A DNA stretch of 62,342 nt, the filler included, from Hausera hauseri (Eukaryota): assembly GCA_046269625.1 (NCBI GenBank). It is 11 parts of 11 records of this genome, joined end to end, with 100 filler letters (N's around TTAATTAATTAA, not from the genome) between each part and the next. Parts side by side here need not be neighbours in the genome. Positions count along the whole stretch, not along the records: positions 52,056 to 57,760 come from JBJURY010202858.1; 10 more parts are not named here. One strand, 5' to 3'. Below are positions 8,377 to 62,099 of the stretch, piece after piece. The notes below the pieces were generated by a model. That model searched no databases. It saw only the letters and a list, made by a program, of their open reading frames with translations, and was not told the origin of the DNA. The position numbers and the translations under genes were made by a program. Within the stretch, counting starts at the first letter, position 1; every line of letters starts with the position of its first letter.

Positions 8377-9850
8377 TGACTACGAAAAAAAAATAACTTG
8401 CAACATAATAGGATCATTTAGACAAAATGCGTCCATTTTTTATCGCACTTTATATACGGTTAAACTGACGGTAAATGATACAAAAAACAAACAAATTGCA
8501 AAAGATGTATATTTATTTGAAATACCTGAAGGCATTGATGATAGAGCATTGCTTTTAAATGTTACCTAGAAAGAATGGGCTATCAAGATGTAGACTTTAT
8601 TATGATTACACAAGGCTCCATATCCATTGCAGCGACGTATGGAAATCCCAAGTTGAAAATCATCAGATGTCACGTAGATACCTATTATTATTCATTTAGT
8701 GTTGGATCGGAAGTAGAATGTACTTATGTAGAAGAAAAATGGAGTCTGTGCTCTTTGTGCACGAAAAATTTTATTGCGTTTCCACGGGGAAATTTTACCA
8801 ATTATTATTTACCGAATCAATTATTATTTACTGAATCAAAATTGGAAATGTACAACACATTTCACGTTCATAATACCATCCCAAATAAAACAGACGTCCA
8901 AATATTTTATAAGCAAAACTTTTGGTCAGTAGATCTACTTCTGATAGAGGACCATGGTAATTTTGGAAAAGTTTATGGCAGTACTGATGATGATGAAAAT
9001 CACTCACTTGAGGACTATAAACAACCGACAGAAAATGAATATCTTTAGAAACCTGATCAAAATGATCACCAGGAACGATTTTCCCAGGAGCTCAGAATCT
9101 ATGCCAAACTAGATGGCAAAAGTGAATCTGGTAATAAAGCAAATATCAACAAACACATTCATGATCGACAAAAAATGCACCCACCGTTACTTCCGACTCC
9201 ATGGATACTTAAATAACAATTGCGACCAAAGTCAAGTCCTACGTCACCGAGTGGATTAGCAAATGGCTATTCACCTCAATCGAACTCCCGGGTGAAACAG
9301 TTGCTCGATTTCAAAATAACATCAAATATAAATGCTCAAACTGAAGACCGTTGTGCAAAACATTGTTTGAAGAGCACTTCAAAATTTCTAATGATTCCAA
9401 AATCTTTATTCCGAAACAAATGCTTATTAACGAACCTCATGTCACTTTGTTCGAGGAGGAAAATGATAGCTTATCACAGAACAAGAACAATTCAGAAACT
9501 GGTTTACATTGCTCTAGTAGTTCTCCAATAAACTTTTCACCTAAGTCATGTAACAATCATCCAACCGCTACACAGTGTTCGGGGTACTCAACTCCGACAT
9601 CTTATTGCTCGACCAATTCCGACGAAATAACACAAGGTAATTGTGACAGTTATTCATATACTCGATCATTTAAAATATCGGACGTTTCACCTGTAATTCA
9701 CATATCATCTCAGAATTATGATGGTCCTTATCGGAAAATTTCTGTTTGTTCCTCATCGAGAAGTCATTCTGGTTTTAATAATTTTGGTCGAAATACAAGG
9801 GATTCTCTGGCTGAGGGACCGAGCGTGCCCGCCCCCGTTACACCACTTCT
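8377..9850 (+). pseudogene. Unknown coding region (Cys/aromatic-rich part, then Ser-rich part) upstream of a UBL-Gag
   Basis: ORFs 8575-9048, 9220-9531 and 9351-9983. The last reads in frame into the ubiquitin-like domain. Confidence 0.45.
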
Positions 9851-10067
9851 TTCTTTTCTCATCTTTTCTAATAATAAACATGTCTATACATTGAGGGTTG
9901 CACACAAACAAACGGCACATATTCATTATTCTGAATTGTCCTTTTTTTCGGCTCCTATTTTTATTGTATGCATAATGGCCTAACTTTGTTACCTTACGAC
10001 TCTGTCATCCTTTACACCCGGGAAATATTCCATGACTCTCATTGTCCATTTTCGCATCCGTGGCGGA
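9850..10067 (+). pseudogene. Ubiquitin-like domain ending RIRGG (copy 1), frameshifted
   Basis: FLIFSNNKHVYTLRVAHKQTAHIHYSEL..FYCMHNGLTLLPYDSV..MTLIVHFRIRGG; RIRGG is at 10053-10067. Confidence 0.7.
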
Positions 10068-12602
10068 TCGGACCCTGACCCTTCCGCCGAATATTTCACT
10101 TAAACCAGATCTGGTCGTCGTCCTGTCGACCCCACACCATCAAAGTATCCGAATCTCCCCTGCACAGATTTTTCCTAGGTAAAACGAACTCGAGCCGCAC
10201 TTGGTTACAGTTTCATTTGCAATGGCTCAAAGCCAATCACATTACAGATTCCTTTCTGCGGGCTAACAGTTTGCTGCTATTACTTCCAGCTAAAATCAAA
10301 CAGCAAAGAAGTAATCTGGCTGGCCTACTCTCTTCTTCAAGGCCCTATGATATGCTGTATAAATCAGTTCTACATATCACCGACCCTTCGATCGACAGCA
10401 TAATTCAGAAATATTTTAATGAACACGCCATCGGAAATCAAAAACCATCGGATTTCTTTAAAACTGCCATCTTGCAATTGAGCTCCTTGGGCGTCACTCC
10501 CACAAACAATGCCGATCTTCTTCGTCGGTATTTTCTTTCATCTTTGCCAACCTCCATCCGAGCGATGCTGATTGTAGTAGACGACCCTACTCGCCTTGAA
10601 AAGCTCGCCTTGTTGGCAGACAAAAGTTTTGATATTCTGCAGTCTAATAGTTCACAGCCAGTAGCCGCAGCAACCGCTCATACACCTTCAGGCAACACTC
10701 TATTTACACAACAACTGCATTTGATGCAGAAGCAGTTCGACACACTCCAACAAGCAATTTCTGCGATCACAGTCAAACTCAGTGATTTATCCGTGCCTCG
10801 AGGAAGCGAAAATTGTATTTCACGCAATCGCAGTTTTTCCAGGCACTCTTATCGTTTCGAATCTAGAGATGGTAAAATGACGTGTTTTATCACAACAAAT
10901 TCCGCAGAGACGCAAGGAAATATGTTTTAGGCTGTCGATTCTACGATGAACGATATGCAGTAGACAATCCAATCTGCATCTATCACGAAAAGTATCAGTC
11001 CAAGGCTAGGTTGTGCTGTGCCAGGATGCAAATATTATAAAAGGAATTCAATTTTCTCTCCATTTTCTTCGCTTTCTCGTACTCATCATTCTTCTTTTCC
11101 TCAACAAGTCTCAAAAAACCAATAATGCCACCAGATGCCACGGCACATTCTGGCACAGGCAATGTCATTCAATCTTCTGGCCGTTTCAACATTGCCTCTT
11201 CAGTCTTTCTGTTGATAGCTGAAATATTATTTGGAGACACATCACAAATAGATTTCCTTATCGATTCAGGAGCTGCCTTTTCACTTCTTTCTTTGTCTTT
11301 CGCTCCTATGTCTAACACAGTTTTCTCTCCTCCAAATTTCACTGCAAGTGGACAACCGTTGCACGTTGCAGGAACCACGGAATTGACTTTCACATTCGCC
11401 AAATTGCCATATAAGTTTGTCTGGAAGTTCCACGTGGCCAACATTAAATCTCCAATAATAGGCTCAGATTTTCTTGCCGCACGTGATTTATTGGTAGATT
11501 GCAAATACAGCTGTCTTCTCGGCAGAAACTCGATTTCAACTTCAAACATGTGTCTCGCAGACAATTTAGCAAGCAATTCATTGCACTCATTACGAAACAT
11601 GTTGAACGTTTCGTCGTCTATTAAAAAAACTTCCGATAAAGTCGGTACGCCTTCAATTATGAACGACAATCATATATCTATTCTGAAACAAAAATCCAAA
11701 TTAGGTGTCGACAGCAGCGATGCCAGTTGCCTCTCTTCAGTCACTTCAGCTGTTCTTTTTAATGATACGCCTCAATCATTCTTATCTTTAGACTCCGATC
11801 TTAGATCAAATATCACAACATCATGCTTTCGAATAGTTAAAAAAAACATGAACTTCAAGCTCGCCCTCAGCTTATCATCAAATAGTAACGGAGCATCAGA
11901 GGCCTATTAAACGGAGGGTCGGAACTTTGTTGCCACGCATACGTAAAGCTGTGGAGCAGGAGTTTAATGAACTGGAAATGTCTGGCATCGTTCGGAAATC
12001 GAATTCTCCATGGGCCTCTCCTCTTTATGTAGTGGTAAAGAAAGATTGAACCTATAGGCCATGTGGCGACTATCGACAATTAAACATTCTAACTATTACA
12101 GATGCCTATCTACTACCACTCATTAAGTATATACTTCATAGCCTCAGCAACACCAATACCTATTCTACTATTGATCTGCACAAGGCCTACCATCAAATCC
12201 CTGTTGCCCCTGATGACATTCCAAAAACTGCTGTCATCACACCATTTGGTCTTTATGAATACATCTCCATACCTTTCGGCCTACGTAGTGCATCTCAGAC
12301 CTTTCAGCGCCACATTGATACCGTTCATTCTGGACTTGATTTTGCTCACCCATACATAGATGACATATTAGTCGCTTCAAGCTCCTCAACACAACATCAT
12401 GAGCATCTTAGAATTATTTTCCACAGATTGCATCAAAGTAACCTGCAAATTAATTTCTACAAATGCAATTTCTTCCAGAAACTCGTAAACTTCATATGCC
12501 ACATAATTAATCCTGAAGGGCATTTGCCCCAGCCTGATCGCTTACAACAATTAAAAAATGTAACGTTGCCAACTACAACTACCGATATGAGGAGTTTTCT
12601 AG
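10068..12602 (+). mobile_element. Ty3/Gypsy gag-protease-RT, decayed and cut by the contig end
   Basis: Gag with IGNQKPSDF and a C-terminal CxxH-type repeat. Protease FLIDSGAAFSLL...IIGSDFL (11125-11910). RT SPWASPL, RPCGDYRQLN, DL.KAYHQIP and YIDDILVAS (about 12350). Confidence 0.92.
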
Positions 12603-13473: not shown

Positions 13474-13539
13474 AATTGGAGGTGCATAATTACGTGAGTT
13501 CTTGATTGTTTTTTCTTGTATGAAAGTGTGTCAATTCTT

Positions 13540-14210
13540 GTCTACAAATCATCATCATCATCATGTGCCGTTGGTCGACGGTTCGGACTTGTAGTGTTGT
13601 ATGGGTAGTTGTATAGGGGAAATGTTGCTTTTTTAGTGTCTTGTCTCTTGTTGTGTGGTTCTATCAGTCAGAATCATCATTGCTTGTCTACAAATCAACA
13701 TCATCATCGTATGCCGTTGGTAAATGGTTCTGTACATTTAGTGTTGTGTGGATAGTTGTATAGGTGAAATTTTGCTTTTTAGTGTCTTGTCCCTTGTTGT
13801 GTTGTTCTGTCAGTCAACATCATCATTGCTTGTCTACAAATCAACATCATCATCGTGTGCCGTTGGTCGGAAGTTTGCTGGTTTGTAGGTAATGTTGGTT
13901 ATTTTGTGTCTTGTTGTTCATGTATCTTGGTAAAGTTGTAATGATAGGGAAATTTGGTGTTGGGGAACCGGTTTTATTAGTAATCATCATCATCAGCATG
14001 TGCCGATGGTTGACGGTTCGGACTTGTAGTGTTGTATGGATAGTTGTATAGGGAAATGTTTTGTGTCTTGTTGTTCATGTATCTTGGTAAAGTTGTAGTG
14101 ACAGATGTATTGGGGAAATGTCGTTTGTCAGTCAACACTCTCGTGTGTCGTGGTAAAGTTGTAGTGACAGTTGTATTCGGGAAATGTTGCTTGTTATTAA
14201 TCATCATCGC
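13540..14210. repeat. Degenerate tandem repeat, unit about 145 bp
   Basis: aatca(a/t)catcatcat..tgccg(t/a)tggt recurs at about 13547, 13692, 13838 and 13982. Confidence 0.8.
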
Positions 14211-37386: not shown

Positions 37387-39870
37387 TTAACGGTCTACGC
37401 ATGTTAGTATATATTTGTTATTCTTGTGCGTCGTGGGTACTGGTCCCACGATGTACGTCAATATGGCTTTCATTGGTCTATCTGGTACAGCTGTCTGTTT
37501 CAGCTCTGCTATGTAATTCCACATTTTCCTCTGCTTAGTCGCCCATACTTTGCAAGTGCTTACCCAGTTTTTCACATCACTATATCTACTAGGCCAATAG
37601 TATTTGTTTAACGCCCTATCGAACGTCTTCTTCCAGGACATGTGTCCAGTCAAATACGAATCGTGTTCGGCCATTAAAACTTTAGTCTGTAGAGTTTTTT
37701 GAATAACTACTAATATTCTTTCCTTTCGTTCGTAATACAACACTTTTTCATTGTTATTGTTCTTGGAGACACAATATTTATGTCCACGTCGTTGTAAATG
37801 TTTCGCTAACTGGTGCCCTTTTGGCATTACGTCTGCTTCAGCGAAATCCATGATTTGTTGGATAACTTGATCTTTCTTTTGTTCGCTTGAAATTCTAGTT
37901 GCTCCGTCCGACGCTAAGGTTCGTTGTCGATCTACTAACTCTTCGAGCTGGATTTTCTTCATCGTCACAATAGCACTTTGTTTTCATTTTTAATAGTAAC
38001 AACGCATCAGCATCAACATGCTTCACACCAGGTTTATATTGGAATTCAATATTATATCTTGAGATCTCTTCAATTCATCTATTCAACCTACACGTAGGGT
38101 TGTTTGCTCGTCCCTTTAAATTTGTAACTACCTTGTGATCGTAACTATTAATATCTTCAGTCCATAGACGTAAACGTTAAAATGCCTTAAGGCTTCTTTT
38201 ACTGCTAACGTTTTTAGTTCTGTCACTGAATGGTTTTTTTCTGCTTTTTCAGGAAGCGTCTTCCATAAGCAGTTGGATGTTCTAGTTCTTCGTCTTCGCG
38301 TTTCTGTGCCAATTCATATCCGATATCTTCTTTACTTGCGTCTCTTTTAATAATAAACGGTAAGTTAAAATCAGTACTGGTTCGCTATTTAGTATCTTCT
38401 TCATTACGTCGAACGCCTTTTGTTCAACATCGGTTCATCTCCATTTCGTTCGCTTTTTTAATAATCGGTATAATGATTCATTGATTTTTGAGTTCTGCGG
38501 TACGTAGGTAGCATAATATCCACATAGACTTAACCAATGTCTCAGTTCCTTTTGGTTCTGAGATTCCATTCAGTTTGAAATTTTATTCAGTAATGATTTG
38601 GAGGCTTGGATCCTTCTTCGCCAACTATATGGCCAAGATAGGACACGGCGTTTTGGGCCAATTTGCATTTTTTGGGGTTTACTTTTAACCCGGCTTGTTC
38701 TAATCTCATAAGAGTGTATTCAATATCCTTCAGATGCTCCTTTACGTCTTCTGATACAATCATTGCGTCATCTAAATACGTAAATGCATGTTCAAGTCAC
38801 ATTAGCACTTTATTCGTCATCCTGGTTAATATGGCTGGACCAGTGGTAATTCCAAATGGCATAACGTTGAATTCGTATACGCCATCATGAGTTTTAAACA
38901 CTGTTTTATAACGATCTTCATCCTCAATCTCTACTTGCCAATATCCGGATTGTACGTCCAGAGTGGTGAACTATTTTGCTCCTGAGAGCCTGTCTGGAAC
39001 CTCTTTCACAGATGGTAAAGGAAACAAATCTTTCATCATGAGAATATTTAATACTCTATAATCGATACAAAATCGATGTTTTGTGGTACCTTTTTTTAAC
39101 CATAAGAATAGGGGAATACCATGATCTGAAACTTGGCCGGATTATATCGGCCTTTAACATACGTTCTACCTCCTTGGTTACCTCCAGCCTTACAGAATGC
39201 GGCGGCGGATACCATTTTGGCATTTTTTGTTCTTCGAGATCGATTTCATAGTTGGAACCAGGCTTTTTCTTAAGTGGTATAGTGAATTTTAACGTCTTTG
39301 CTCGGCCTGTATCTTCTTAGTCCTTCGCAATGATTGATTTATATCGACATATTAATTCGTAAAACTGGTAATAAGCTTCTGGTGAAAACTTTGTATCGAC
39401 GTGTGATGGAAATTCAGCGTATTTATACGGTTTCTCTTTAACCGTTACTGCTGATACATTGTAGATATGCCCTAGAGTAGTATTAGCATATAACCTCATT
39501 GAAGTATGAGGATTATTCATTATTTTTACAGGTATTCGTCCCGACGCTACTCGGGTTAATATATTGCTCAATATTATATTCGGGTTTAGTGTTTATTTTG
39601 GCTCAAAATATGCTGGTAAATCGTCGTCTTGACAGATTTGTGCAAATAAGAACAATTCCGTTCTGGGAGGAATGTTTTCGTCGACTGCAATCCAGACTTC
39701 TCCGGGTTCCCTCTCTTTATTAATCTTATTTCCTTTCATTGGTCCGAGCTTGATTAACTTCGAGGCATTCAAATCTACCACGATGTTTGGTAGACGTCTC
39801 AATATATCACACCCTAGCACCATATTATTCCATTATAGAAAATTCATATTGGAATATTTGTTCCATTATT
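37387..39870 (-). mobile_element. Gypsy pol (protease C-terminus, RT, RNase H, integrase N-terminus), a close relative of 22480-25418
   Basis: VLGCDIL, HRFCIDYR and YLDD. QLEELVDRQR..QKKDQVIQQI..PKGHQL..HLQRRGHKYC matches QLKELVDKQR..QKKDKIIQQI..PKGNQL..HLQRHGHKYC. Confidence 0.95.
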
Positions 39871-41910
39871 TTAAGATTAGGATTCCACTTAAATTTTGGT
39901 CTTGATTCTTGTCCGAGTATATTACTTTGCGATCATCTACCGGCTGGCGGCATAATTCGGATTTTTCCATGTTTTGGTACATCTTCCGTAGCACGCTGTA
40001 TTGTTTTGTCACTTCATAGGGATCATCGTAACTGAAAGGCTTTCGATAAATTTCCGAACTACAGGAGTTAATAGATCTCTTATTGCTGTCTTCGTATTGC
40101 GGTGCCGAAGGGGGCAGCATTGGTAAAGGCGGCCTAAGCGTCTTACGATTGCTTATCTTGGAGACCGCGTCTCCTCCCTTAGGCTCATCATCATCCGAAT
40201 CATTTCTTCGAAATTTTGTATTTCTTTGTCCTATAAAAAATATAGGTTTTCTCTTTTGTTTCCGATTATAATAACCAACGTATCTCTCCACGTCACTTTT
40301 CCATTTGTTTTCTTTGTAGGCCTTCAAAAATTTTCCAAACAGTGTTATGATCGCGGTCAAAATTTTGCATGAAAATCCGGTTAGAGTAAATATTTCGTTG
40401 TCATTTATGATGGATTGAATTATAACCTTTATAAGTTGTATCAAGAAATAGATGGCTAAAAATCCTGATGCAGCTTGTCCGAAAATTAAAAATCCTCCCC
40501 AGATTTTATATAGTATTTCTGTAGTGACTCTTTGATAATGATTAACGCCAAGTAGGGATTCCCATTTTGCTTGATAGCGAGTGTCATCCATCACCGTTGA
40601 CATAGCTCTATTTAGCTCATGTGTACGCTGTCGAGGGAAGGCTAGGAATTGTCTTAAAGCTTCAATTGCCTTTGGTCGGTAAATCCATTTACTTGCGGTG
40701 TCAGTGAACTTATCATCCGCTATGCATTTTAACAAATTTTTTTAGTTAATTTTCCCCGCGTGAGTATTATTCCTCCATTAGGCAGACTTACCAAATCTGT
40801 CTCACTCCTCTTGAACATAGGTTCGCCTAAACCTGCTTTGCATTCTTTGAAAACAATTGGTTGTGTCGCGTTTTCTAGCAAGACTCTATTGAGTGGCATA
40901 ACCAATCGAGGAACGTTTTGATATATGATTGGCAATTCTTGAATACAACGTTTTTCCTCCACGTTTAGGGATAAATCTCGTTTTTCGCATCCGTAGGTCA
41001 ACAGGACTTCTCCGGTAACTCTTCGAAAATGCCTTCTTTCATTGAAATTACGGGCGATGCTAGTTCTGGATTTGCGTATAATAAGGCTAGTGTGGTCCTC
41101 ATGATTTCCGTATCCAATTTACAGTCACCTGCGATCATCTTGCGGTATAACTCTGCAAGTCCAATTTGCCCTTTATAATAGAAGTAATCATCTCTATTCT
41201 TTAAGTAATCTTTCCGTGGTTTCGTTAAATTTATTTCTTTTATTTTAATAAAGGTACAATCGTTCATAGGTGGTGGGGTCCAAATAACTATTGTATTTCG
41301 GAAAGTACAGGCACCATCTTGGATATGACACTTCTGGTTTTCGGTATATTTTTGTGTAACTCTATGGAACATCACCTATTAATTCCTCATCTCTGTCTTA
41401 TGGAAATCAACTACTACTATTCATGCTTCTCTTCCTTTTCCTGTATTGTATTCACCTCATTTAGACTATCCCGTGTGCATGTTTAATTTCCCAGTTGCTA
41501 CTTTATACACCCGAATTATCATTCCTGGTTTAATTTCTAATTCCATCCCATCCCATCGCAATCTTCCGGTTTCCTTGGCTTGTTTGCATTGTTGTTGATC
41601 TAAATCCATAGGTATTAGCGGTGTCGTTGGATTTGCCATTGACGAATGTCCGTGTATATTTTCACAGTAGAAAATGCTTCGCAATTGTCGTAACATGCAC
41701 TCTATTCCGTCTATTGCGATTAGTTCGCGTTACTGATACAAGAAATACTTTTTCTCAATGGTTACTAATTTGTGGGGTCTGGCATCCTCATATAGCTCCA
41801 GATCTATCAGGGAATATTTTTGACCTATTTTAAACTTATCACAGTCATATACCGTAATTGCGCCGAGTTGTCTTATTAACATAATAAGTTTTATTAGTTT
41901 AATCATCCAA
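39866..41910 (-). pseudogene. Chuvirus-like (class III, gB-related) envelope glycoprotein, frameshifted
   Basis: Signal-like segment then VYDC...YSLIDLE, C..HGHSS, QCKQAKETG, CHIQDGAC....IVIW......C, C........CIQELPI.Y......MP..RVL, and C-terminal TM GGFLIFGQAASGFLAIYFLIQLIK. The Cys spacing is recalled from chuvirus-type G proteins. Confidence 0.7.
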
Positions 41911-45194: not shown

Positions 45195-47500
45195 ATGAGT
45201 AATTCTGTGATGCCTATACGATTTCAGGAGCATTTTCAGCTTTTGACAATCGATAAAAGTGCTGCACCCTGACGATTGAACCGGATAAATTTATTTGCGT
45301 TCGAGAACGAGCAGGTGAAACATTTCAGGTTGTCGTTGCCGATCGAAAAGGGCCCAACAAATTCTATCAAATGGCCAATTTCTGCCGATTCTGCAATAAT
45401 GAATCCGATCAGTAAAGTGATTGCGTCGAAAGCCGGGAAAACTGCAAATATTTAACATTGAATTAAAAAGCAAAATGAAACTTCAATTTATCGGAGGACG
45501 TCATCTTTTGGAAATGGACGTCATTTTCGATGAATACGATTACTCTTGTTACGGAAAGTGTAGTGTTCCATTGGTCAATGGAAGGTGATTCAAGTCCTAT
45601 AAAAATATTTGATCGACATTCGTCGTTAAACGGTTGTCAAATCCTTAATTATCGTTGTAATCCCAGTATGAAATGGCTAATTTTAATCAGTATTTTGGCA
45701 CAGCAAAGTAGAGTTGTTGGTGCTATCCAATTGTACAGCGTTGATAGGAAAGTCAGTCGCACAATCGAAGGTCATGTAGCATCGTTCGCACATAAAAATC
45801 GAAAACACTCCAAATGCATCCACGTCGTTTTGTTTTCCCGTTCGCAGAACACAACAGGGAAAATTGCATACAATTGAAGCTGACCAGACTCCTACCGGAA
45901 ATCAACCGTTCATTAATAAGGCTGTCGATGTTATATTCTCACCGGAAGCAGCAGCTGATTTTCCAGTAGCTATGCATACTTCCAACAAGTACAATATAGT
46001 ATTTCTAATCACCAAATATGGTTACATCCACTTGCACGATATCGAAACCGGAACATACATTTATGTAAATCGCATCATCAGTGAAACAATATTTGTCACA
46101 TCACTGTACGAAGCCACCGCTGAAATTATCGGAGTAAACCGAAAGGGTCAGGTTTTATCTGTTTGGGTTGAGGAAGACACGATCGTTTCTTACATTACAA
46201 ATACTCTAACATGCCCGACTTGGCTTTACGAGTGACTAGCAGAAATAATCTGCCAGGCGGAGTAGACATTTTGGTTCACGATTCAACAACCTTTTCAGTA
46301 GCGATCAGTATTCCGAGGCTGCAAAGGTCGCAGCAAGTGCACTGAAAGGAATGTTAAGAACTGCGCAAGCAATTCAGCGATTTCAGCAAGTGCCTACTCC
46401 AAGAGGCAAATCGCCTTTACTTTAATCATTCGGAATTTTATTAGACCAAGGACAACTTCGCAAATACGAAAGTCTGGAACTCTGTCGACCAGTTATTTTA
46501 CTAGGCAAGAAACGGTTACTCGAAAAGTGGTTAAAGGAAGATAAACTTGAATGCTCCAAAGAACTGGGTGACATTGTTAAAGAGAGTGACCCCACATTGG
46601 CATTGCCCGCTTATTTAAGAGCAAATGTGCCTCAGACGGTTGTTCCGTGTTTTGCAGAAACGGGGCAGTTTCAGAAGATTATTCTGTACTCGAAAAAGGT
46701 TCGATTCACACCAGATTACGTATACCTGCTGAGAAATCTGATGAGAATAAATCTTGACCAGGGTCTACAACTAATTTTGAAGGAAGCTAAATTGACCGAT
46801 CACTTATCTCTCATAATTGTCTGTGATAGATTCAATTTTGCTCACGATTTGGTACTTTATCTGTACCGGAATCTACTGCAGAAGTACATTGAAATATACT
46901 TGCAAAAAATGAACTTCCAGCGACTGCCATTTGTCTTTGGTGGTTTGGTCGATGTCGATTGTTCCGAACAGGTTATTATACAACTCATAATGGTTATCAG
47001 AGGCCGGTTCAGTACCGATGAACTTATTGTCGAAGTCGATAAACGGAATTGACTCCAACTGTTGTGGCCATGGTTAGAATACCGAATCCACGATGGATCC
47101 GTTGGACCGGCAACTCACTATGCACTGGTCAAAGTCTATTGGAATAGAAACAACAACCAGTGACGAACTCTGCAAGAAAACCAGTTTTACAACAGTCGTG
47201 TTGTGGGAAAGTACTGTGAAAAGAGAGATCCCCATTTGGCATGTGTTGCATACAAACGCGGTCAGTGTAATCAGGAATTGATTAAAGTATGTAACAAAAA
47301 CAGTTCCTTTAAAACCGAAGCACGATACTTGGTTTGTTGTAAAGATCCTGATCTTTAGTGTAAGATTTTGGGCGACAGCAATGAATACAGACGTCGGCTA
47401 ATCGTCCAAACAGCATTGTCAGAAACTCTGGTTCCCGAAGAAATCTCCATCGCTGTCAATGCACTTATGGCCGCCGATATGCCCAATGAATTGATTGATG
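45195..47500 (+). pseudogene. CLTC: Clathrin heavy chain processed pseudogene (N-terminal part, intronless, internally deleted)
   Basis: [76 protein letters not shown] and LIIVCDRF; many frameshifts and stops. Confidence 0.96.
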
Positions 47501-48254: not shown

Positions 48255-48740
48255 GAAAATTTCCTTCTTGGTATTTATCAATAATCAACTCATACAAACA
48301 ATGCGCACTTACCGACACGGCACAGTCCTTGTACAACTCCTTGTCCCTCCTATTCCACCCTTCTGATTTCTATTTCACACATCATGGTCTCACTGTACAT
48401 CCTCCCGACTCGCTTTTGCCATTCAAATGCCACGAACGTCCGATCATCTATCTCATGCTTACGTCCGCCTTCGGGGTGGATCGGACCCGAATCCATCTTT
48501 CTGGGATGATAAATACACATACATACAATATCTAACGTGTACCAAACTGTCAACAAACACGAGCTTTGTTAAATCTACCTTGTGTGGATTTTTTTCTTGA
48601 TAAAAACAACTCCAGCAAACCATGGGCCCAATTCCACCAACAGTGGCTAAAATCCAACAACATCACCGACTCCTTTGTGCGGGCCAATAGTCTTTTGATA
48701 CTTCTGCCTGCCAACGTCAAGCAGCAGATCAGTAACTGGA
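48255..48740 (+). mobile_element. Ubiquitin-like domain ending RLRGG (copy 2) and truncated Gag N-terminus
   Basis: ISFLVFINNQLIQTMR..SLYNSLS....SDFYFTHHGLTVHPPDSL....HAYVRLRGG|SDP, with RLRGG at 48466-48480. Gag WLKSNNITDSFVRANSLLILLPA matches the gag at 10217. Confidence 0.8.
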
Positions 48741-51955: not shown

Positions 51956-52496
51956 NNNNNNNNNNNNNNNNNNNNNNNNNNNNNNNNNNNNNNNNNNNNT
52001 TAATTAATTAANNNNNNNNNNNNNNNNNNNNNNNNNNNNNNNNNNNNNNNNNNNNTGAGCAAAAGTTAATAGCGGTTCGGCTTACAGAAATTTAAGGGAG
52101 AGGCGCTAGAAGAAAAAACAAAACTGAAAATGCTCACGTGTAACGCGAAACATGTTGCTAGCACGGAGAAAAATGTGTACAAATGATAAATCAATGTTGG
52201 TGAATTCAATGGACACGGTTGCAACTCAATTAGACCGTGGGAACGTGGGAAAAATCTGTGCGAAAATTTCAAACGGGGAAAATTTCCCCTTACACAAGTC
52301 AAACGGCGATGGAAATGAGTTGATGGAAATTGGTGTCAGAGCATATTTTGGAAAATGGATGAAAAAAAACGTATTTTTAACTTCTAACGATACCCAGATT
52401 CTCCAAGATAGCAAAGAAATGGTTAGTATTGCCGACGAATTTAATATATTTGATTTATCAGTTGATTTAAAACTGTTGTTTTTCATAGTTTGCGAA

Positions 52497-53695
52497 ATGG
52501 TAGCATTAAAAATTTTCAGGTCTTCAAATAATTATTTGATTCGATGTTTTGCATTTCGCGAAAAGCATGTTGAAATAATGCATGAAGTGAATATTCAAAT
52601 AATAAGTGATTCTTACCGAAACAGATTTTCTTACAATTCACCATCACAAAAACTTGATTTACGTGAAACGTGTAGCATTCTTGAGAAATTGAATGTTGAT
52701 ATTTCAAAAATATATAAAAGTAAATTCGTTGAATTCGACCTACCGACGAAGCATGGAAATAATGTTGAAAGCCATCTGGAAAATGCTGCTAAACGGATTA
52801 CTTCGCCTTTTTTGACACTTTTTAACGACGTCATTGGTGATTGGAATATTCCAACAATCCCAAAACAGTGGAAATTCTAAAGTGGATGGATGAAATACGA
52901 TAAAACCAATCAAAGTGCAAGTAAGGTTGACGTTCCAGATGAAGATCTATTATTTTTCGACGTTGAAATAATCACTGATAAAAGTCATCGGGCAGTAATT
53001 GCTGTTGCTTTGGAAGCCAACAATTCGTATTCATGGACGAGTGATCAGATGGTAAAGGGTATTCCACGGAATAATTTCAATATAACAAGCGATGAATTGG
53101 TTCCGATTTCCGATAGAATGAATAAATTTAAGCCGAAATGGATAATTGGGCATTTTGTTAGTCTCGATCGACAACAAATAATGGATGAATACTATATTGC
53201 AAGTAGCGCTATTTGGTTTATCGATACAATGTCGTTACATATTAACATTTGCGGAATGATGTCGTTACAGAGGAGTTTGAAACAGTCATTTGATAAAAAT
53301 CGTGTTGACAATAAATTATGGAGACAATTTTATTTAAATGATCGAGAAGATATTGATGATTTTTCTATTGAAGAAATTAGTGATAATGAAAAGTAGATCA
53401 ATGACGCTTCATTCATTGGCCTACAGGAAGGGTTCACACATTATTATTCCAAAAGTAATATTGCTACATGTAAAAAGTTGCAAGAAGTTTTCCTAAAGGG
53501 TTCTACGGAATTTGTAGTAAAAGATTTTTAAAGTCTAACCACATATTACGCTACCAATGTATTAACGACTGCTTTGATATGTCGAAAATTATGGCCTGAA
53601 TTTCCTGATCGTTTCCCTAATTTGGTAACAGTTGCCAGGGTGCTTGAAATGGGTTCTTTTTATCTTTCAGTTAATGAGAACTGGAACAAATATAG
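52497..53695 (+). pseudogene. POLG: Mitochondrial DNA polymerase gamma catalytic subunit, exonuclease region, intronless decayed copy
   Basis: ExoI FFDVE, ExoII IIGHFVSLDR, FIDTMSLH and FPDRFPNLVT...LEMGSFYLSVNENW.KY. Confidence 0.9.
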
Positions 53696-53714
53696 AAAAA
53701 GTGCCCGAATTCAT

Positions 53715-54858
53715 CTGGATTTATTACCGCAAACGAGACAAACAATAAAAAATCGTTTCGCAACATTTTTGCGATCGTACATGAATTTCGAGGGGAAGTC
53801 GATGTATTCTAAACGAATTTCTGCTATGGCATAAAGGATTGAGCGAAGTTTCGCTGTCGATTATGAGCATTTGGTAGCAACTGAACAGGCATTAGCACAT
53901 TTTGTACCGGAAGCACCATTGTAAATGTTGGAAATATTTGATGAGGTAGCATTTGAAGCCATCAAACACAGATACAAAAAATACGAGAAAATATCAAACA
54001 TTATCCACATACGCATTTGCCATCTACCCTTAATTGAAGAAATAAGATCTCTACGTAAAACTCACATCAATCAGTTAATTCGTGTCTCCGGAGTAGTTGA
54101 AAATTGCATAAATACTTTCCCTCAGTTGAGTCAAGTTTATTAAGGATGCGTCTAATGTTGCTGCGTCGTTGGACCGTTTATACAATCTTAGGTGAATAAG
54201 TAAATTAAACCGACATCTTGTCCAGATTGCCAGCCGATTGGACCTTTTAACATCGATCCTGAACAGACTGTATACAAAAATTATCAAAGAATTACTATTC
54301 AAGAAACTCCAGGACATGTTGTTGCTGGGCAATTGCCACGTAGTCAGAAGACAGTTCTGACGGACGACCTTGTTGATATGTGCAAACCTAGTGACGAAAT
54401 TGATGTTACTGGCATTTTGTGTTTGCAATACGATTCGTCAATGTTAGTAGATGGCGTATCTACCATTCCGACCTCGACGTCATTCGGTGATTGTAAGACT
54501 GAATTATTCATTAGAAATTTATTATAAAAGTTTGTATAACAATTATCTCCTTCACTCATTAAATGATTCTTCTTTTCAAACATTTTTGAATTTCCTGATT
54601 TTATATTGGCTGTTTATTGATTTAACTGAATTGAATTTAAACTTTGATATTCGTTTAAATTCCTGCTCACAGTCACAAAATATCAAACATGGATTTCCTG
54701 CGTTCTATATTTATATCCTCGTCAATAACCTGATAAAAACTGATGAACAACTCATCCTCAGTGGACTAAACGATGAGGAAGTTTCGGTGACTAACGCGTT
54801 GTCAAAGGACGAGAGACTGTTTGAACGTATCGTCAAAAGTATTGGGCCGATCATCTAT
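53715..54858 (+). pseudogene. MCM2: MCM2 N-terminal region, intronless decayed copy
   Basis: IKNRF..FLR, PEAP..MLEIFDEVA, LPLIEEIRSLRK.H.NQLIR.SGVV, CPDCQ..GPF, NYQRITIQE.PG.V.AGQLPRS and HGFP. Confidence 0.93.
54442..54671 (-). mobile_element. Solo LTR inserted in the MCM2 copy
   Basis: TG..CA ends and a 5-bp target duplication GTCAA/GTCAC. It is homologous to LTR 17378-17601, and its removal restores YDSSQNIKHGFP. Confidence 0.9.
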
Positions 54859-54859
54859 G

Positions 54860-56620
54860 AAATGGATGCAATTCCTCCCTCTGCACGATATCTTGCTAAT
54901 AAAACCGATTTCGCGTTCACCGACCCTATTCATTATATCTATAGCTTCAAATTGCGAAACCTTACGCGTTGTAAAACATCAACGGCACAGCAAGTTCTTC
55001 AGATAGATCTCATGATCGTATCCACCAGTTACGTTTTGCTCTGCGTTAAGTAAAACAGTAATATCACCAAGGATTCGGACAAATTTACTTTCTGGACAAA
55101 ACTTTTTTTGAAATCCGATACTCCAGAACACGGAGCACAAACCCTCCGACAATTGTCGAAAGAGCTGTTACAACCACTCGATGGACTGCTGTGCGTTCTG
55201 GAGACTTTGTAAGCAAAGGATCACGAGTGAAGCTGACTACTACGGATTTGGCAGCGTTCGCCGATATGGAACCGGACGGCAAATTTGATTTCTTTGACAC
55301 TGTGGCATTGAAGGAACTTAGCAGTCAGTTAGAACGACTGCAGGAATTACCTCACTCATTTGGATTTTGTCAGTCTGTTGTACCACTCGCCACTGTTCAC
55401 CAAATAGGCGCAGATATATTTGATGTGCGCTTTACAGGAGAATTCCACACTGCCATCGACATGTTCAGAACTGAATTACACCGGCGGTTTGCTCATATCG
55501 TAGACCGCACATCCACAATTGGTGGATCAGATATTAACGAGGGACAGCAACTCGTGTTATATGCTCTTCTGTTTACCATTCGCGACGTTAAGGAATCTTC
55601 CTCTCCTCTGGAACATTTATTCACTGACAGTTCATCTCTGGACATCGATATCATGCTTGTTGACTTAGCTGCCTTTGGTCGTACGGCAACTGCTTCCCCT
55701 GCTACCTCCGGTCCATGAAAGTCTGTCAACAACAATTATTCGCTTGAAGAAACGAGTAAGTCACTGGGATATTGGGGAATAACGATTGAGCACGGCATCA
55801 TTACGATTAACGCGTTTAAAACGATTATAAAGAAGAGTTATTTTGGTAATGACGTTAACTTTAGAACTGATGAAAACGCCGAATTCAAACAAACATTGGC
55901 TCAATCGCGTAATTGTCGGAATTCGATTCGAGAATAGGTTGTTAATCACACCAAGAATTTTGGTCAGCAAGGCTCAGGCACTAAGTCAGGTGTTGTGCAT
56001 CAACAATGATTCATTGTACTTTGGTGCTGCATTCGTCATGAAAGACAATGGCGAACGAATTGGCCTGAAGAGACGGACAGTTACATCAGACGTTCGATTA
56101 CAATTCATTCGACACATAACTTTGCATATAATGCCAACGATGTCCCACCGAATGATTTCGTACTTTCCGGCAATACTCAGATCTTTACGGGATAACACCG
56201 TGTTGAACATGCTCCTCGACGACTTCGGAACCCAAATTATCACTTTCGAACGTAAGCCGATTACTGATACATTTATATTTTCTGTAAATATTTTTAAATT
56301 TCCACTACCCGAAGCTTACCAACTTCTCAAAAGTCGAATTCGTAATTCAATTTGTTTACACTTTTATGGCTTAGTCCAAAAGTTAGTTAGGAAGTAAAAG
56401 GAAGCCACGAAATGTTATCCGAAAATTTCGAAATAGGCTCAAGAGTTCATTCAGCCATTGCGTGATTTCGGGGGGGGGGAGGAACTCGGGCACCCCGTAT
56501 TTTCGTACTCGCCCCGTCGAGGCTAAGATCCCGACCGTCAACCCTGCGCCGGTCGGTCGGGGGAGGGGAGCACCTTCGACGTCGTCCCCAAGTCACGCCC
56601 CAGGCCCACCACTGACCCCA
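54860..56620 (+). pseudogene. Unknown coding region upstream of UBL-Gag
   Basis: Consecutive ORFs 55191-55718, 55843-56397 and 56462-56797 with no recognised family. Confidence 0.5.
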
Positions 56621-56624
56621 CCTC

Positions 56625-57760
56625 CATTCTCTTTTTTTATAATAACATTTACACCTTTCAAACCCACCTTTCTTCTATCCTTGGTTCTTCAGACTTCTTC
56701 CTTACTCATCACGGCGCTATCATTCATATTAACGAAACTTTATCTTTTCCAAATCGAGCTTGCTTCAACATACATCTCCGTATCCGTGGTGGAATGAATT
56801 CCCCACCGATCACTGACACCACGGATACAACCACCACGAAAAAGCCAATACCCATTCTTTATTACTCCAAACCAAACACTCCGCTTTCTTCAATCGATGA
56901 AATTCCCATAAAAACCTTACCAATACTCAACACTGCACTGAATACTTCGTAGGTAACGAAAAGTCCAGTAAAATGTGGCTTCATTTGCACAAACTCTGTC
57001 TCCAGTCTAGTGGTATCACAAAATCCTTATCTAAAGCCCACAGCTTGCTCTATCTCCTCCCGAATTCCATAAAAGCCTCAATACACAATCTGCTAGAGAT
57101 CTTTCAACACCCTGACCCTTATACCCAACTATTCGATGCTGTATTGAAAGAGACCGAATTTTCCATTGACTTTATAATGCAGCATTTCTTCAACGAAAAT
57201 GCACTGGGCACACAAAAACCCAGCGACTTCTTACGCACTTCACTGGCACACTTGCGTATTCTTGGAGTAACTAAGGAACAAAACCCTGATATTCTACGCC
57301 ATTATTTTCTGAATGCCCTACCTATCCAAATACTGGCCTTTCTTACCGTGGTGAAAGACTCCACGCAGCTTGAAAAATTGGCCGAATTGGCCGATAGGAC
57401 ATGCGATGTCCTCCACATAAATTCGCAACCCGTAGTTTCAGCAACAGTTGCTGCTAACGACATATAAACAACTAACACGTGCATAGAACAGCAGCTAAAT
57501 CAGTTACGTGCTAAAAATATTGCATTTCAGGCAACTATCAACAACATAAATAATAAATTAAATGAATTGTCTCTGTCCCGACGAGGGGGTTTTGTCGTTT
57601 CCCGTGCCCGTTCTACGTCACGAAACCGCTCACCATCACCTGCGCGTTCGTCGATCTGCTACTACCACAGCAGATTCAACACTAATGCTCAGAAATGCTG
57701 CCTGGGTTGCCAATTTTACAACAGTAAATTTTCCTCCAACACCGTTATCTGCATTTACCA
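56625..57760 (+). mobile_element. Ubiquitin-like domain ending RIRGG (copy 3) and Gypsy Gag
   Basis: SDFFLTHHGAIIHINETLSFPNRACFNIHLRIRGG, with RIRGG at 56779-56793. Gag has LGTQKPSDFLR, RSRxRSPS and CYYHSRF...A.KC...C. Confidence 0.85.
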
Positions 57761-59444: not shown

Positions 59445-62099
59445 TCAACGAGGTAACACAAAACACTGCACATTCATACTATCATTTTTTATGGCACCAG
59501 GCAACTTTTTCAATTCGCCAAATGACTGAAACTCCACAAATCCATCAAAACAATCATTGATCAAATTTTCTGGTCGCTCATATGCCGCTCGTCTCGCTCC
59601 AGAATTTTCCCGACTAAATCGTTTCATCAAGGCATTCAATCCCGTTTCCTGATTGACAATTGAAATCTCCACAATCCGTGACATTGGCCACGGTAAATTT
59701 TTGTCATTCGGTCCATTCATCAATTGGAATGCCAACCACAAACCATCGGAGAATTTCGATATCCAAAAATACAATCGCAATTTGTAGCCAGTGGAATTTG
59801 CGTTACTGAAAAATGGTTTGCTGTATTCCCATTTGTTATTCATGAACTTTGTTGTAATGTTAGAAATTTTCCATGAAAATTTTTCCATTTCCCCTCCATT
59901 CGTGCCAAATTCCGTTTGAGACGGTTCCCAATAAATAACTTCGGCATCCTTTTTCTTGTTTTTATTCACGACAGAAAAATCACTCGACGGATTTTCCTAC
60001 AACACAACTCGTTAGTTTCGCAAAATTCCAATGAACCTTGTCGAGTCTCGATGATCTATTCTGCAATTCAAAGTCACTATCAGTGTTGCTGTCACGGAGG
60101 TCGGTGTCTTCATCATAGCGACGTATTTTTAATGGGCTCATTTCGGTTGGTTTTGTTGTTTTGCATATATCAACCCGTTTTTTCTTTAGAAATGCATTGA
60201 CAACACGGTGTTTTGTCTGTGGATATCGATAGAATCAAATCAATTATTTCATATTTCACAATCGTACCTGTTTGTTGTCACTATGATCTGACTTTGACTT
60301 TCGTTGAATATTTGTCAAATCGACCTGAATACAACTCATATTTGATGGAAACAGAAATAGACAAACACATTATCCATTAGAAATAAAATAAATTAAATGG
60401 ATTTATCATTAAATTTTATATGAATTAATAATACTTTTACAAACGAATTACTGTCGTCAAATGTTGGAATTTCGTCTTCTTTCTGAATACTTCTCATTCA
60501 TTTCCCCATTAAATGAAAATGATTAACATTCATCATCAGTCATCAGAATGACAATACACAAATGATTTTGAATATTAAATTAACTGAATACAATTTTAAT
60601 TTGTCAAATTATTAACAACAATTCATTAATAATCAATTATTATTGTAATATTGATATAGAAAATGATGGATGGGTATTTTATGAAAATGTTAAATAAATT
60701 GGACTATTGAATGGGGAGTAGAATGGGGGAGGGGAGGACGTAACTTGGAATTTGAATTTTCAAAATGATTTTTCATTTTGTATTAGATAACACAACGTTT
60801 TGTAAATAATTTTCATAAGAATCCATATCAAAATTACACGTCATTCTAATAGCAAATGCAAAAAGTCCTATCCATTTCTGTGACGGATAAATGCCATTTG
60901 GATAATTGATTATAAATTCTAGATGAGAATTTTGTATGATAACAACCGTATGTTTTATCAATGGATTCATATCATAACAATGTCATATTACTAATTTATT
61001 AAATTCTTTACATTTCATATCAATAATTTTTATAAGTTTACCTACAATTGATTGTATTCGTAATGAAGTTATTATTACCAATAAATAAAATGTTATTTCA
61101 AATATAATTTTCATGTCAAATTATCAAATTGTCCCATAATTCTTATTGAAAATTTAAATCAACATGACAATGAACTTCAACTTCATTCCAAACAATTGTT
61201 TGTTATGTCTATCAAAAAGAAGTCGATGGTCGTTACTTCATTTCCTTTTGTTTAATATCATAGACAATCCATTGCCAAATTGTAATCTTCCTTCTTGTCC
61301 ATCGACGTTTAATCGTAACCCAAAATTTTATTTTACCAATTTCACACTAAATTCCACTCGACTGTTACCATTTCATCATTTCAATAAAAACCCCATCTAA
61401 ACGATACTACAAAATTTGCTCACCCGATCATTCTTCAACGCCGCCAAATCTGACAGAATTTCGTCCTGTTTTCGTCGGAGTTCGGCAATTTCTTTTATCG
61501 ATTCATTCTGAAACAAGAGAAATGGATTTCAAATACAACAAAATATTTACCATTCGTTTTTCTAATGATATAAATTTTCTTTTCCAAATAATATTATCAG
61601 CACCATCGTAATTTTCTTCTCCATCTACAGCTGTTGTCGATTGTTCATTGAATTGATCGTTATTGAAGTGATCTTTCATATGTTCGTACAATTTCTTTAA
61701 TTGCCATTTCTCACCACAATTCTGATACGGGCATTTCACATGCAAATATGACACTTGCATGTTGCCCGGTGCGTCTTTCACAATGTTCTCGTTCACGTTC
61801 AACAATTGTTCGCTACATTCCTCCTTTCCACCTGGACAAATTTTTTCGTCATTGCTCAAGTACTCCGTAATACATGCTGAACAAAATTTGCATCCACATG
61901 GTGCAAAACATGAGTCAATCAATATCTTTTTACAAATGATGCATTTTAAATTATCTGGAATGGTGGATACAAAATGAATATCGTACAATCGCAAAATTCG
62001 AAAAACGTCAGTCATATCTTTTTGATGATAATTTTTCAAATAATGTTTATAATTGTAAATGTCAAACTATATAGGTTTAAAAAGGTTGTGTTTATCCAT
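59445..62099 (-). CDS. TRAF: TRAF-like gene (RING, zinc finger, coiled coil, MATH), spliced and possibly disabled
   Basis: RING CIIC..PCGCKFCSAC..CP and zinc finger CPYQNC..H..DH. MATH FSWKI..YSKPF...GYKLRL..LM.GPND..LPWP. Introns at 61508-61550, 60325-61423 and nearby. In-frame stops near 62068 and 59980. Confidence 0.8.

Follow-up and report, generated by a model that had tools for sequence, protein, structure and literature searches.

The window and its UBL-Gag copies

The window analysed here, a stretch of 62,342 nt from Hausera hauseri, consists of eleven contigs, not linked to one another, with N44-TTAATTAATTAA-N44 spacers between them (3949-57860), and adjacency across the spacers is not genuine. 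It holds three copies, at 10,050, 48,463 and 56,776, of a junction at which a ubiquitin-like domain (UBL) ending in GG is followed by a retrotransposon Gag. The copy at 56,776, which the first-pass annotation had singled out, lies on contig G000:C202858 (window 52056-57760), and all of its features are on the plus strand. A 10-nt match to the TGGTGTCAGA motif, a probable primer-binding site (PBS), presumably of tRNA-Leu type, is found at 52331..52340 (+), where similarity of the contig to sister copy L074 begins at 52327, and the PBS of this copy is probably the one at 52,331. Behind it runs a decayed leader cargo (52341..56470, +), a sense-strand mosaic of host genes recognized by Pfam and by pieces common to L074, L035, and L033; it includes matches to the DNA polymerase gamma exonuclease (PF18136, E=9.6e-40) and the MCM OB domain (PF17207, E=3.6e-20), with other pieces unnamed, and ends with an exon fragment of NAA15, the NatA auxiliary subunit (56355..56470, +), which reads in its host frame into the leader and carries two stops. 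There follow a conserved GC-rich leader block that reads as a Pro/Gly-rich peptide (56475..56600, +), the UBL ending HLRIRGG (56623..56793, +), a Gag N-terminal linker that begins MNSPP (56794..56900, +; family dN/dS 0.49), and a DUF7041-like Gag core with a Cys/His tail (56901..57760, +), the contig stopping inside gag at 57760.

The first-pass annotation had reported that SDFFLTHHG...HLRIRGG reads without interruption into MNSPPITDTT, and this was borne out: the open reading frame at 56527-56952 passes the end of GG (56793) without a break and continues for 52 codons before a stop at 56,952. Its placement of a frameshift at ~56,930 was not, as the break lay at ~56,900 against every one of the seven sister copies compared pairwise; therefore only ~35 of the 52 post-GG codons, which had been given as about 50, are true Gag linker. 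The Gag core lies in a different frame from the UBL and has a single internal stop (57465-57467). In addition, 33-36 nt (12 codons) are absent from within the UBL at ~56,645-56,663 (7/7 sister-copy comparisons), the missing stretch being the part that aligns with the second strand of ubiquitin, and a further frame break lies at ~56,598 (5/7 comparisons), so that the family's Pro/Gly-rich leader, which had been noted ahead of the UBL, is out of frame with it in this copy. The peptide GPSVPAPVTP, which had been quoted from the first window copy as the same linker, belongs to the leader of the other of two subfamilies (A, which includes the copy at 56,776, and B). The window copy is a decayed member of its family, and it is the best preserved, as had been proposed, only among the three in the window; 16 of the 88 family-A genome copies with both flanks are stop-free from -70 to +200 codons around GG, and are thus open from the UBL through Gag. 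The copy at 9816..10930 (+) is a decayed family-B copy with leader, a UBL ending HFRIRGG, then Ser, and Gag, and the third, also decayed and of family-B type, has VRLRGG then Ser (48300..48740, +).

Several other features were seen in the window. Clathrin heavy-chain fragments (45479-47052, +) lie on the same contig as the UBL copy at 48,463 and are possibly its cargo. An ORF at 39866-40741 (-) matched a Monjiviricetes-type fusion glycoprotein (PF24664, E=1.3e-19); its contig also carries an integrase zinc-binding ORF, and we read it as the env-like gene of a different retroelement. TRAF-like ORFs of the MATH-domain and RING-finger kind are found at 59445-59996 and 61503-62066 (-), and imperfect direct repeats of 60-147 nt are arrayed at 13484-14206.

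Anatomy of the element

From 2,705, 9,407, and 6,696 first-look candidates, the genome searches returned 154, 111, and 150 scored matches, respectively, and part of these matches was examined. The UBL-Gag junction is genuine, with at least 154 genome matches at E<=0.001 (150 of the 2,705 first-look candidates scored). Copies share a body that extends from ~350 nt before GG to ~5,050 nt past it. The order of pol is protease, RT, RNase H, integrase in sister copies L044, L042, and L060 as read by eye, and the Ty3/gypsy domain order is backed by Pfam in the Pol of L293, an element from outside this genome. When compared with PF23055 (DUF7041), the Gag cores of sister copies had E-values of 0.013-0.04 (14.7-16.3 bits), which is below the 28-bit cut-off, and a profile search tied the same Gag to proteins that match PF23055 with up to E=1e-31 and 109 bits. 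The DUF7041 Gag clade presumably corresponds to the CsRN1-like Ty3/gypsy elements.

In six of the six long copies examined, the element body closes with a purine tract (PPT), and an LTR head that starts with TG comes next; the head is conserved over 108 nt and gives way to variable tails. This head was also present 4-6 kb upstream of gag, behind unrelated flank, in L060, L065, and L075. Of 88 family-A copies, 10 carry the PBS motif (12-mer, at most one mismatch) upstream, versus 1 of 88 on the reverse strand; in those 10 it sits 0.85-4.2 kb before the leader. One contig (C139982, with L052 and L291) is 10,949 nt long and, through a 77-nt identical overlap of its ends, closes into a circle that contains the LTR head, 5.5 kb of cargo, and UBL-gag-pol once each. 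Given the repeated upstream LTR head, the position of the PBS, and this circle, the cargo is therefore inside the element, whose order is LTR head, variable tail, PBS, host-fragment cargo, GC block, UBL-GG, Gag, Pol, and PPT. Among the copies examined, no contig was found with both LTRs of one insertion.

We noted some further peculiarities of the element ends. In L060 the PBS motif ~2.8 kb upstream of the leader extends into a tRNA-like complement of ~30 nt. The LTR head is trailed by host-like tails, of which ~30-220 nt are common to PPT-preceded and flank-preceded copies (L044, L278 (L116), L122, and L281; L045 and L283; L049 and L275), and the DNA behind PPT-preceded LTR heads is still sense-biased (12/13). 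Head-to-tail tandem elements, with one LTR head plus cargo between them, occur at L273, L214/L215, and L220.

We considered whether the GC block might be the 3' end of the LTR and rejected this, as all 18 pattern hits go on into the UBL (17 by BLAST, one by eye) and no NAA15-cargo match enters unrelated flank, 27 of 29 entering the GC block instead. With a dN/dS of 0.79 (0.51-1.08), protein constraint on the block is not clear. The GC block (window 56475-56575; L293) is also a weak, degenerate inverted repeat of the LTR head: compared with shuffles, five of six family-A elements ranked at <=23 of 500, one of six family-B elements at <=5 of 500 with one more at 29, L293 at 0 of 500, and L295 (likewise from outside this genome) at 104 of 500. 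These ranks are suggestive only, and the repeat might allow base pairing between the two RNA ends.

The ubiquitin-like domain

The UBL is protein-coding and under purifying selection in the Gag frame. Over the two subfamilies its dN/dS was 0.24-0.37 in that frame versus 0.7-1.5 in the others. For family A (87 rows, pairwise) we obtained 0.29 (0.19-0.40) versus 0.97 and 1.02, and for family B (24 rows chosen on Gag alone) 0.32 (0.23-0.41) versus 0.75 and 1.36, the intervals being bootstraps over codons that ignore the relatedness of copies; 28 family-A copies likewise chosen on Gag alone gave 0.37 (0.26-0.50). The two halves of the UBL are alike in dN/dS (N-half 0.30). For comparison, dN/dS was 0.19 (family A) and 0.09 (family B) in the Gag core, and 0.49 and 0.29, respectively, in the Gag linker.

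The fold and identity of the domain were addressed by structure prediction and profile comparison. An AlphaFold model from 60 natural rows had a pLDDT of 68 with the first two strands unformed, and all 40 among the Foldseek matches listed were of ubiquitin/ISG15 type (probability 0.82-1.0, TM 0.48-0.66, E 0.036 or worse), which gives modest support to a beta-grasp fold. Atlas scores of the UBL (0.78-0.82) were within the chance range, and a search of PDB sequences with the UBL profile returned SDE2 among three matches at E=0.26. None of 60 UBLs from this genome matched a ubiquitin Pfam family, PF00240 included, at E<=1, nor did we see the tandem GG-M units of polyubiquitin, each copy having a single UBL. 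What speaks most strongly for the identity of the UBL is homology to UBLs of other genomes: by hhalign the profile of our UBLs matched a profile of 30 other-genome UBLs with a probability of 97.75 (E=1.3e-12), and the 30-UBL profile scored 59 of 60 rows from this genome above the 95th percentile of tail-keeping shuffles. Among those 30 is P0045, which matches Pfam ubiquitin at E=3.7e-23.

The terminal GG is well retained, the two G residues being present in 85 and 87 of 96 family-A copies and in 26 and 28 of 29 family-B copies, counts to be read with the fact that anchor copies had to match the motif partially. It was invariant in 23 of 23 aligned proteins from other genomes, where a variable linker lies behind it. 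The tail in the H. hauseri genome, [LF]R[IL]RGG, is close to that of ubiquitin, and tails before GG vary widely in other genomes. Selection, fold, and homologues thus uphold the part of the first-pass interpretation that saw here a translated UBL fused to Gag through a GG junction of processing type.

Start of translation

The first-pass annotation had also likened a Met directly after GG to polyubiquitin junctions. Directly behind GG, 85 of 96 family-A copies carry Met and 27 of 29 family-B copies carry Ser; in 30 proteins from other genomes this residue was Ser in 14, Met in 4, Asn in 3, Thr in 3, Ala in 2, and others in 4. As this residue varies behind a single UBL unit, the polyubiquitin analogy fails. 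The Met of family A does mean that Gag could also start there. In family B there is no Met near GG; the first in-frame Met is 94-97 residues past GG in 12 of the 16 copies that reach one, a position inside the Gag core and past the constrained linker. Open copies have no stop between the UBL and Gag. A gag that starts at its own ATG with no translated module upstream was therefore not what we found in the UBL clade, in keeping with the first-pass reading; canonical DUF7041 Gags do begin at their own Met (99 of 150 homologues, short at the N-terminus and without GG).

No in-frame Met shared among copies was found in the leader and UBL, where any Met at all occurs in 15 of 65 (family A) and 8 of 13 (family B) copies and positions are scattered, with at most 3 (A) and 4 (B) copies per position. 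We also considered as a rule a start at an xTG overlapping the PBS. This holds for L021, and [ML]VSE was present in 6 of 37 UBL proteins versus 2 of 113 others; we rejected it because the frame opened there was the longest in only 5 of 18 copies from this genome, so no fixed start site was found. Translation, at least of family B, most likely begins further upstream than GG.

Host-gene cargo and its reading frame

Host-gene cargo joined in frame upstream of the UBL went unremarked in the first reading of this DNA. In 65 of 66 contigs, the upstream DNA was richer in ORF on the strand of the element. We compared open frames from a point 45 nt ahead of a leader landmark. The UBL frame was the longest of the three in 67 of 90 copies, with a median open run of 53.5 codons versus 9 and 7 codons in the other two. 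When copies were grouped by cargo, the UBL frame was longest in 22 of 28 clusters (p=1.2e-6), and in family B it was longest in 25 of 33 rows (some duplicated, one family A) and in 6 of 9 clusters (p=0.04); the clusters were formed by single linkage and share descent, and these p-values therefore overstate independence.

Of the 29 genome matches of the NAA15 piece, 27 continue into the leader; the other two are the host gene itself (L263), which contains introns, and a retrocopy. The host exon behind this cargo matched NAA15 at E=5e-23, and the 27 cargo copies are 73-94% identical to it. In the cargo dN/dS was 0.75, 0.73, and 0.71 across the three frames, i.e., there was no frame-specific amino-acid constraint, and of 67 changes present in at least two copies none makes a stop (3.7 expected, for this one 39-codon fragment); counting all changes, 3 of 111 make a stop versus 6.6 expected. 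The open frame can be long: L021 stays open for 1,352 codons, beginning at the PBS and crossing pieces of kinase, MRPS18B, CAD, and p115 before it reaches UBL-GG, and L205 stays open for 1,216 codons across aminopeptidase and AMP-binding fragments (both picked for length). The host genes appear animal-like.

UBL-Gag proteins in other genomes

A word-indexed search that used a natural UBL-Gag ORF as query yielded no homologue from 4,131 candidates. A HMMER profile search over 1.84 billion representatives returned 454 matches. Of the best 150, scripted classification assigned 26 to proteins with a long N-terminus and GG, and 99 to proteins that lack GG and have a short N-terminus beginning at their own Met; 37 were labelled by hand as UBL-bearing. 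Of 40 UBL-Gag-type proteins scanned, 11 matched Pfam ubiquitin at E<=0.01, two of them passing the cut-off, and one (P0045) carries a near-canonical ubiquitin (E=3.7e-23). Host-type fragments lie upstream in several of these relatives as well, e.g., histone H2A, CNOT1, SCC3, and 5'-nucleotidase. The relatives are gene predictions, and two (L293 and L295) were checked at the DNA level: L295 has an uninterrupted leader-UBL-Gag ORF of 1,303 residues, and L293 has one of at least 796 residues followed by an intact Pol of 1,128 residues. In a quick tree of 143 Gag rows, from which 13 of the 150 homologues with truncated cores were left out, most UBL rows stood apart from canonical Gags (support 91). 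P0042/P0115 and P0089, which bear a UBL, were nested among the canonical Gags, so more than one origin of the UBL is possible, i.e., the UBL-Gag arrangement may have arisen more than once.

Discussion

We think it quite probable, judging from the sequence comparisons above, that the window copy is a decayed Ty3/gypsy element whose Gag stood behind captured host fragments and a UBL, likely as one chain that deubiquitinases (DUBs) would have cut after GG. In this scheme cargo would be acquired when the template switches to host mRNAs, as in PMC5131818, and translation would start at whichever start codon the cargo provides and proceed as a single chain from the cargo through the UBL into Gag. 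The cargo peptide would be disposable and need only remain open. Host deubiquitinases would then cut after GG, as with Sde2 or the ubiquitin insertions of pestiviruses, which would release Gag with a fixed N-terminus whatever had been captured upstream. More broadly, we lean somewhat towards the view that such elements form an undescribed, widespread Ty3/gypsy clade, possibly of more than one origin, in which Gag has no fixed start, captured host mRNA is translated, and a DUB-cut UBL resets the N-terminus.

Each part of this scheme has a counterpart among known systems. Like Ty3/gypsy elements (Metaviridae) with a DUF7041 Gag, the elements have a homologous Gag, a PR-RT-RH-IN Pol, a PPT before the TG-starting LTR head, and a PBS; unlike canonical members, which have their own Met and a short N-terminus (99/150), the UBL group has cargo-UBL-GG in front. 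Sde2 is a splicing factor activated by removal of its ubiquitin fold, with Ubp5 and Ubp15 as the DUBs in S. pombe (PMC9508853), and the available text of that report describes a single divergent N-terminal UBL ending in GG, as here, whose removal gives a defined N-terminus. Sde2 differs in being a host gene that, according to the same text, requires Lys after GG (PMC9508853), a residue seen in 0 of 125 copies from this genome and 0 of 30 from others. The host has its own SDE2 gene (L225, G000:C32993), with an LLGG-KGG junction and both Pfam SDE2 domains, and thus encodes one UBL-GG fusion precursor of the sort that DUBs process. The comparison did not show an origin of the element UBL from this gene, the L225 UBL aligning only weakly (hhalign probability 7%). 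In cytopathic pestiviruses, host ubiquitin within the polyprotein signals cellular hydrolases to make an authentic N-terminus, and other host sequence (an S27a piece) can lie upstream, as far as the accessible part of PMC8310069 describes them; those insertions are sporadic RNA-virus recombinants, whereas here the UBL is fixed, old, and diverged behind a changing multi-gene cargo.

On the side of capture, LTR-mediated retroposition (Tan et al. 2016, PMC5131818) is described as placing pieces of host mRNA in LTR elements by template switching, sometimes from several genes and mostly in sense. In the portion of that paper available, discontinuous element parts flank the retrocopies and "in-frame" refers to the parental gene (PMC5131818), whereas the present elements keep gag-pol and have cargo in frame with UBL-Gag. 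The giant gypsy elements Burro/GYPSM1 have a polyprotein with Ubi2/SUMO-like and other host-type domains (PMC6431247); unlike ours they have a typical Gag N-terminus and an internal SUMO-like domain, and the accessible text proposes no GG processing before Gag. Ginger transposons are described with Ulp1/OTU proteases (PMC2836005, in the part available). Gene capture by LTR elements and the processing of ubiquitin fusions are each known, and we did not find their union reported; a search of the literature on ubiquitin or UBLs with retrotransposon gag, whose scope did not extend to subscription journals, Repbase Reports, or supplements, turned up, among the papers listed, no description of a UBL-GG-Gag.

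Other explanations of the arrangement have to be weighed. The UBL might be translated and stay on Gag, or be cut only in part, with a structural or solubility role or one in targeting to the proteasome or p97, the in-frame cargo merely reflecting the need for some upstream start codon. Cleavage is so far a prediction, the whole domain beyond the tail is under selection (N-half dN/dS 0.30), and Burro elements offer an internal SUMO-like domain whose role is given as unknown in the available text (PMC6431247). We nevertheless consider a retained UBL unlikely, since GG is invariant at the domain end in 23 of 23 other-genome proteins and is followed by a variable linker, and Gag would have to bear up to ~1,300 residues of unrelated, copy-specific cargo. 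Gag might instead use its own or a near-cognate start, or splicing, with the UBL a separate upstream product or a relic and the in-frame cargo a by-product of NMD of the genomic RNA. The Met directly after GG in family A (85/96) would suit this, RNA stability alone could select against early stops, and a splice or non-AUG start would be compatible with the data; yet family B has Ser after GG, a constrained linker (0.29), and its first Met only ~95 residues later in the core, open copies lack a stop between the UBL and Gag, and constraint on the UBL is frame-specific, all of which makes an independent Gag start improbable.

It is more improbable still that the cargo-UBL-GG half is the functional product, e.g., a modifier that can be conjugated or a decoy that occupies the ubiquitin enzymes of the host. 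The [LF]R[IL]RGG tail is near that of ubiquitin and P0045 has a near-canonical ubiquitin, against which stand the widely varying tails before GG in other genomes and the one cargo fragment tested, NAA15, in which there was no frame-specific amino-acid constraint. Finally, the assembly is that of a fragmented short-read genome (909,086 contigs) and the window concatenates unlinked contigs, so mosaics and long ORFs could in principle be assembly chimeras. We give this almost no weight, as one and the same joint between cargo and leader is seen in 27 copies that are 73-94% identical to the host exon, the cargo is biased in strand and frame, and the same layout is present in independent metagenome contigs.

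If translation through the cargo with release of Gag at GG is correct, gene capture would be nearly free for an autonomous element, and such elements would be a standing source of translated multi-gene chimeras, in which shuffled host domains would be routinely translated. Cleavage, if it takes place, would explain how the capsid protein can be uniform although kilobases of host sequence rich in AUG lie ahead of gag, and the retrotransposon cycle would gain a dependency on host enzymes, the DUBs.
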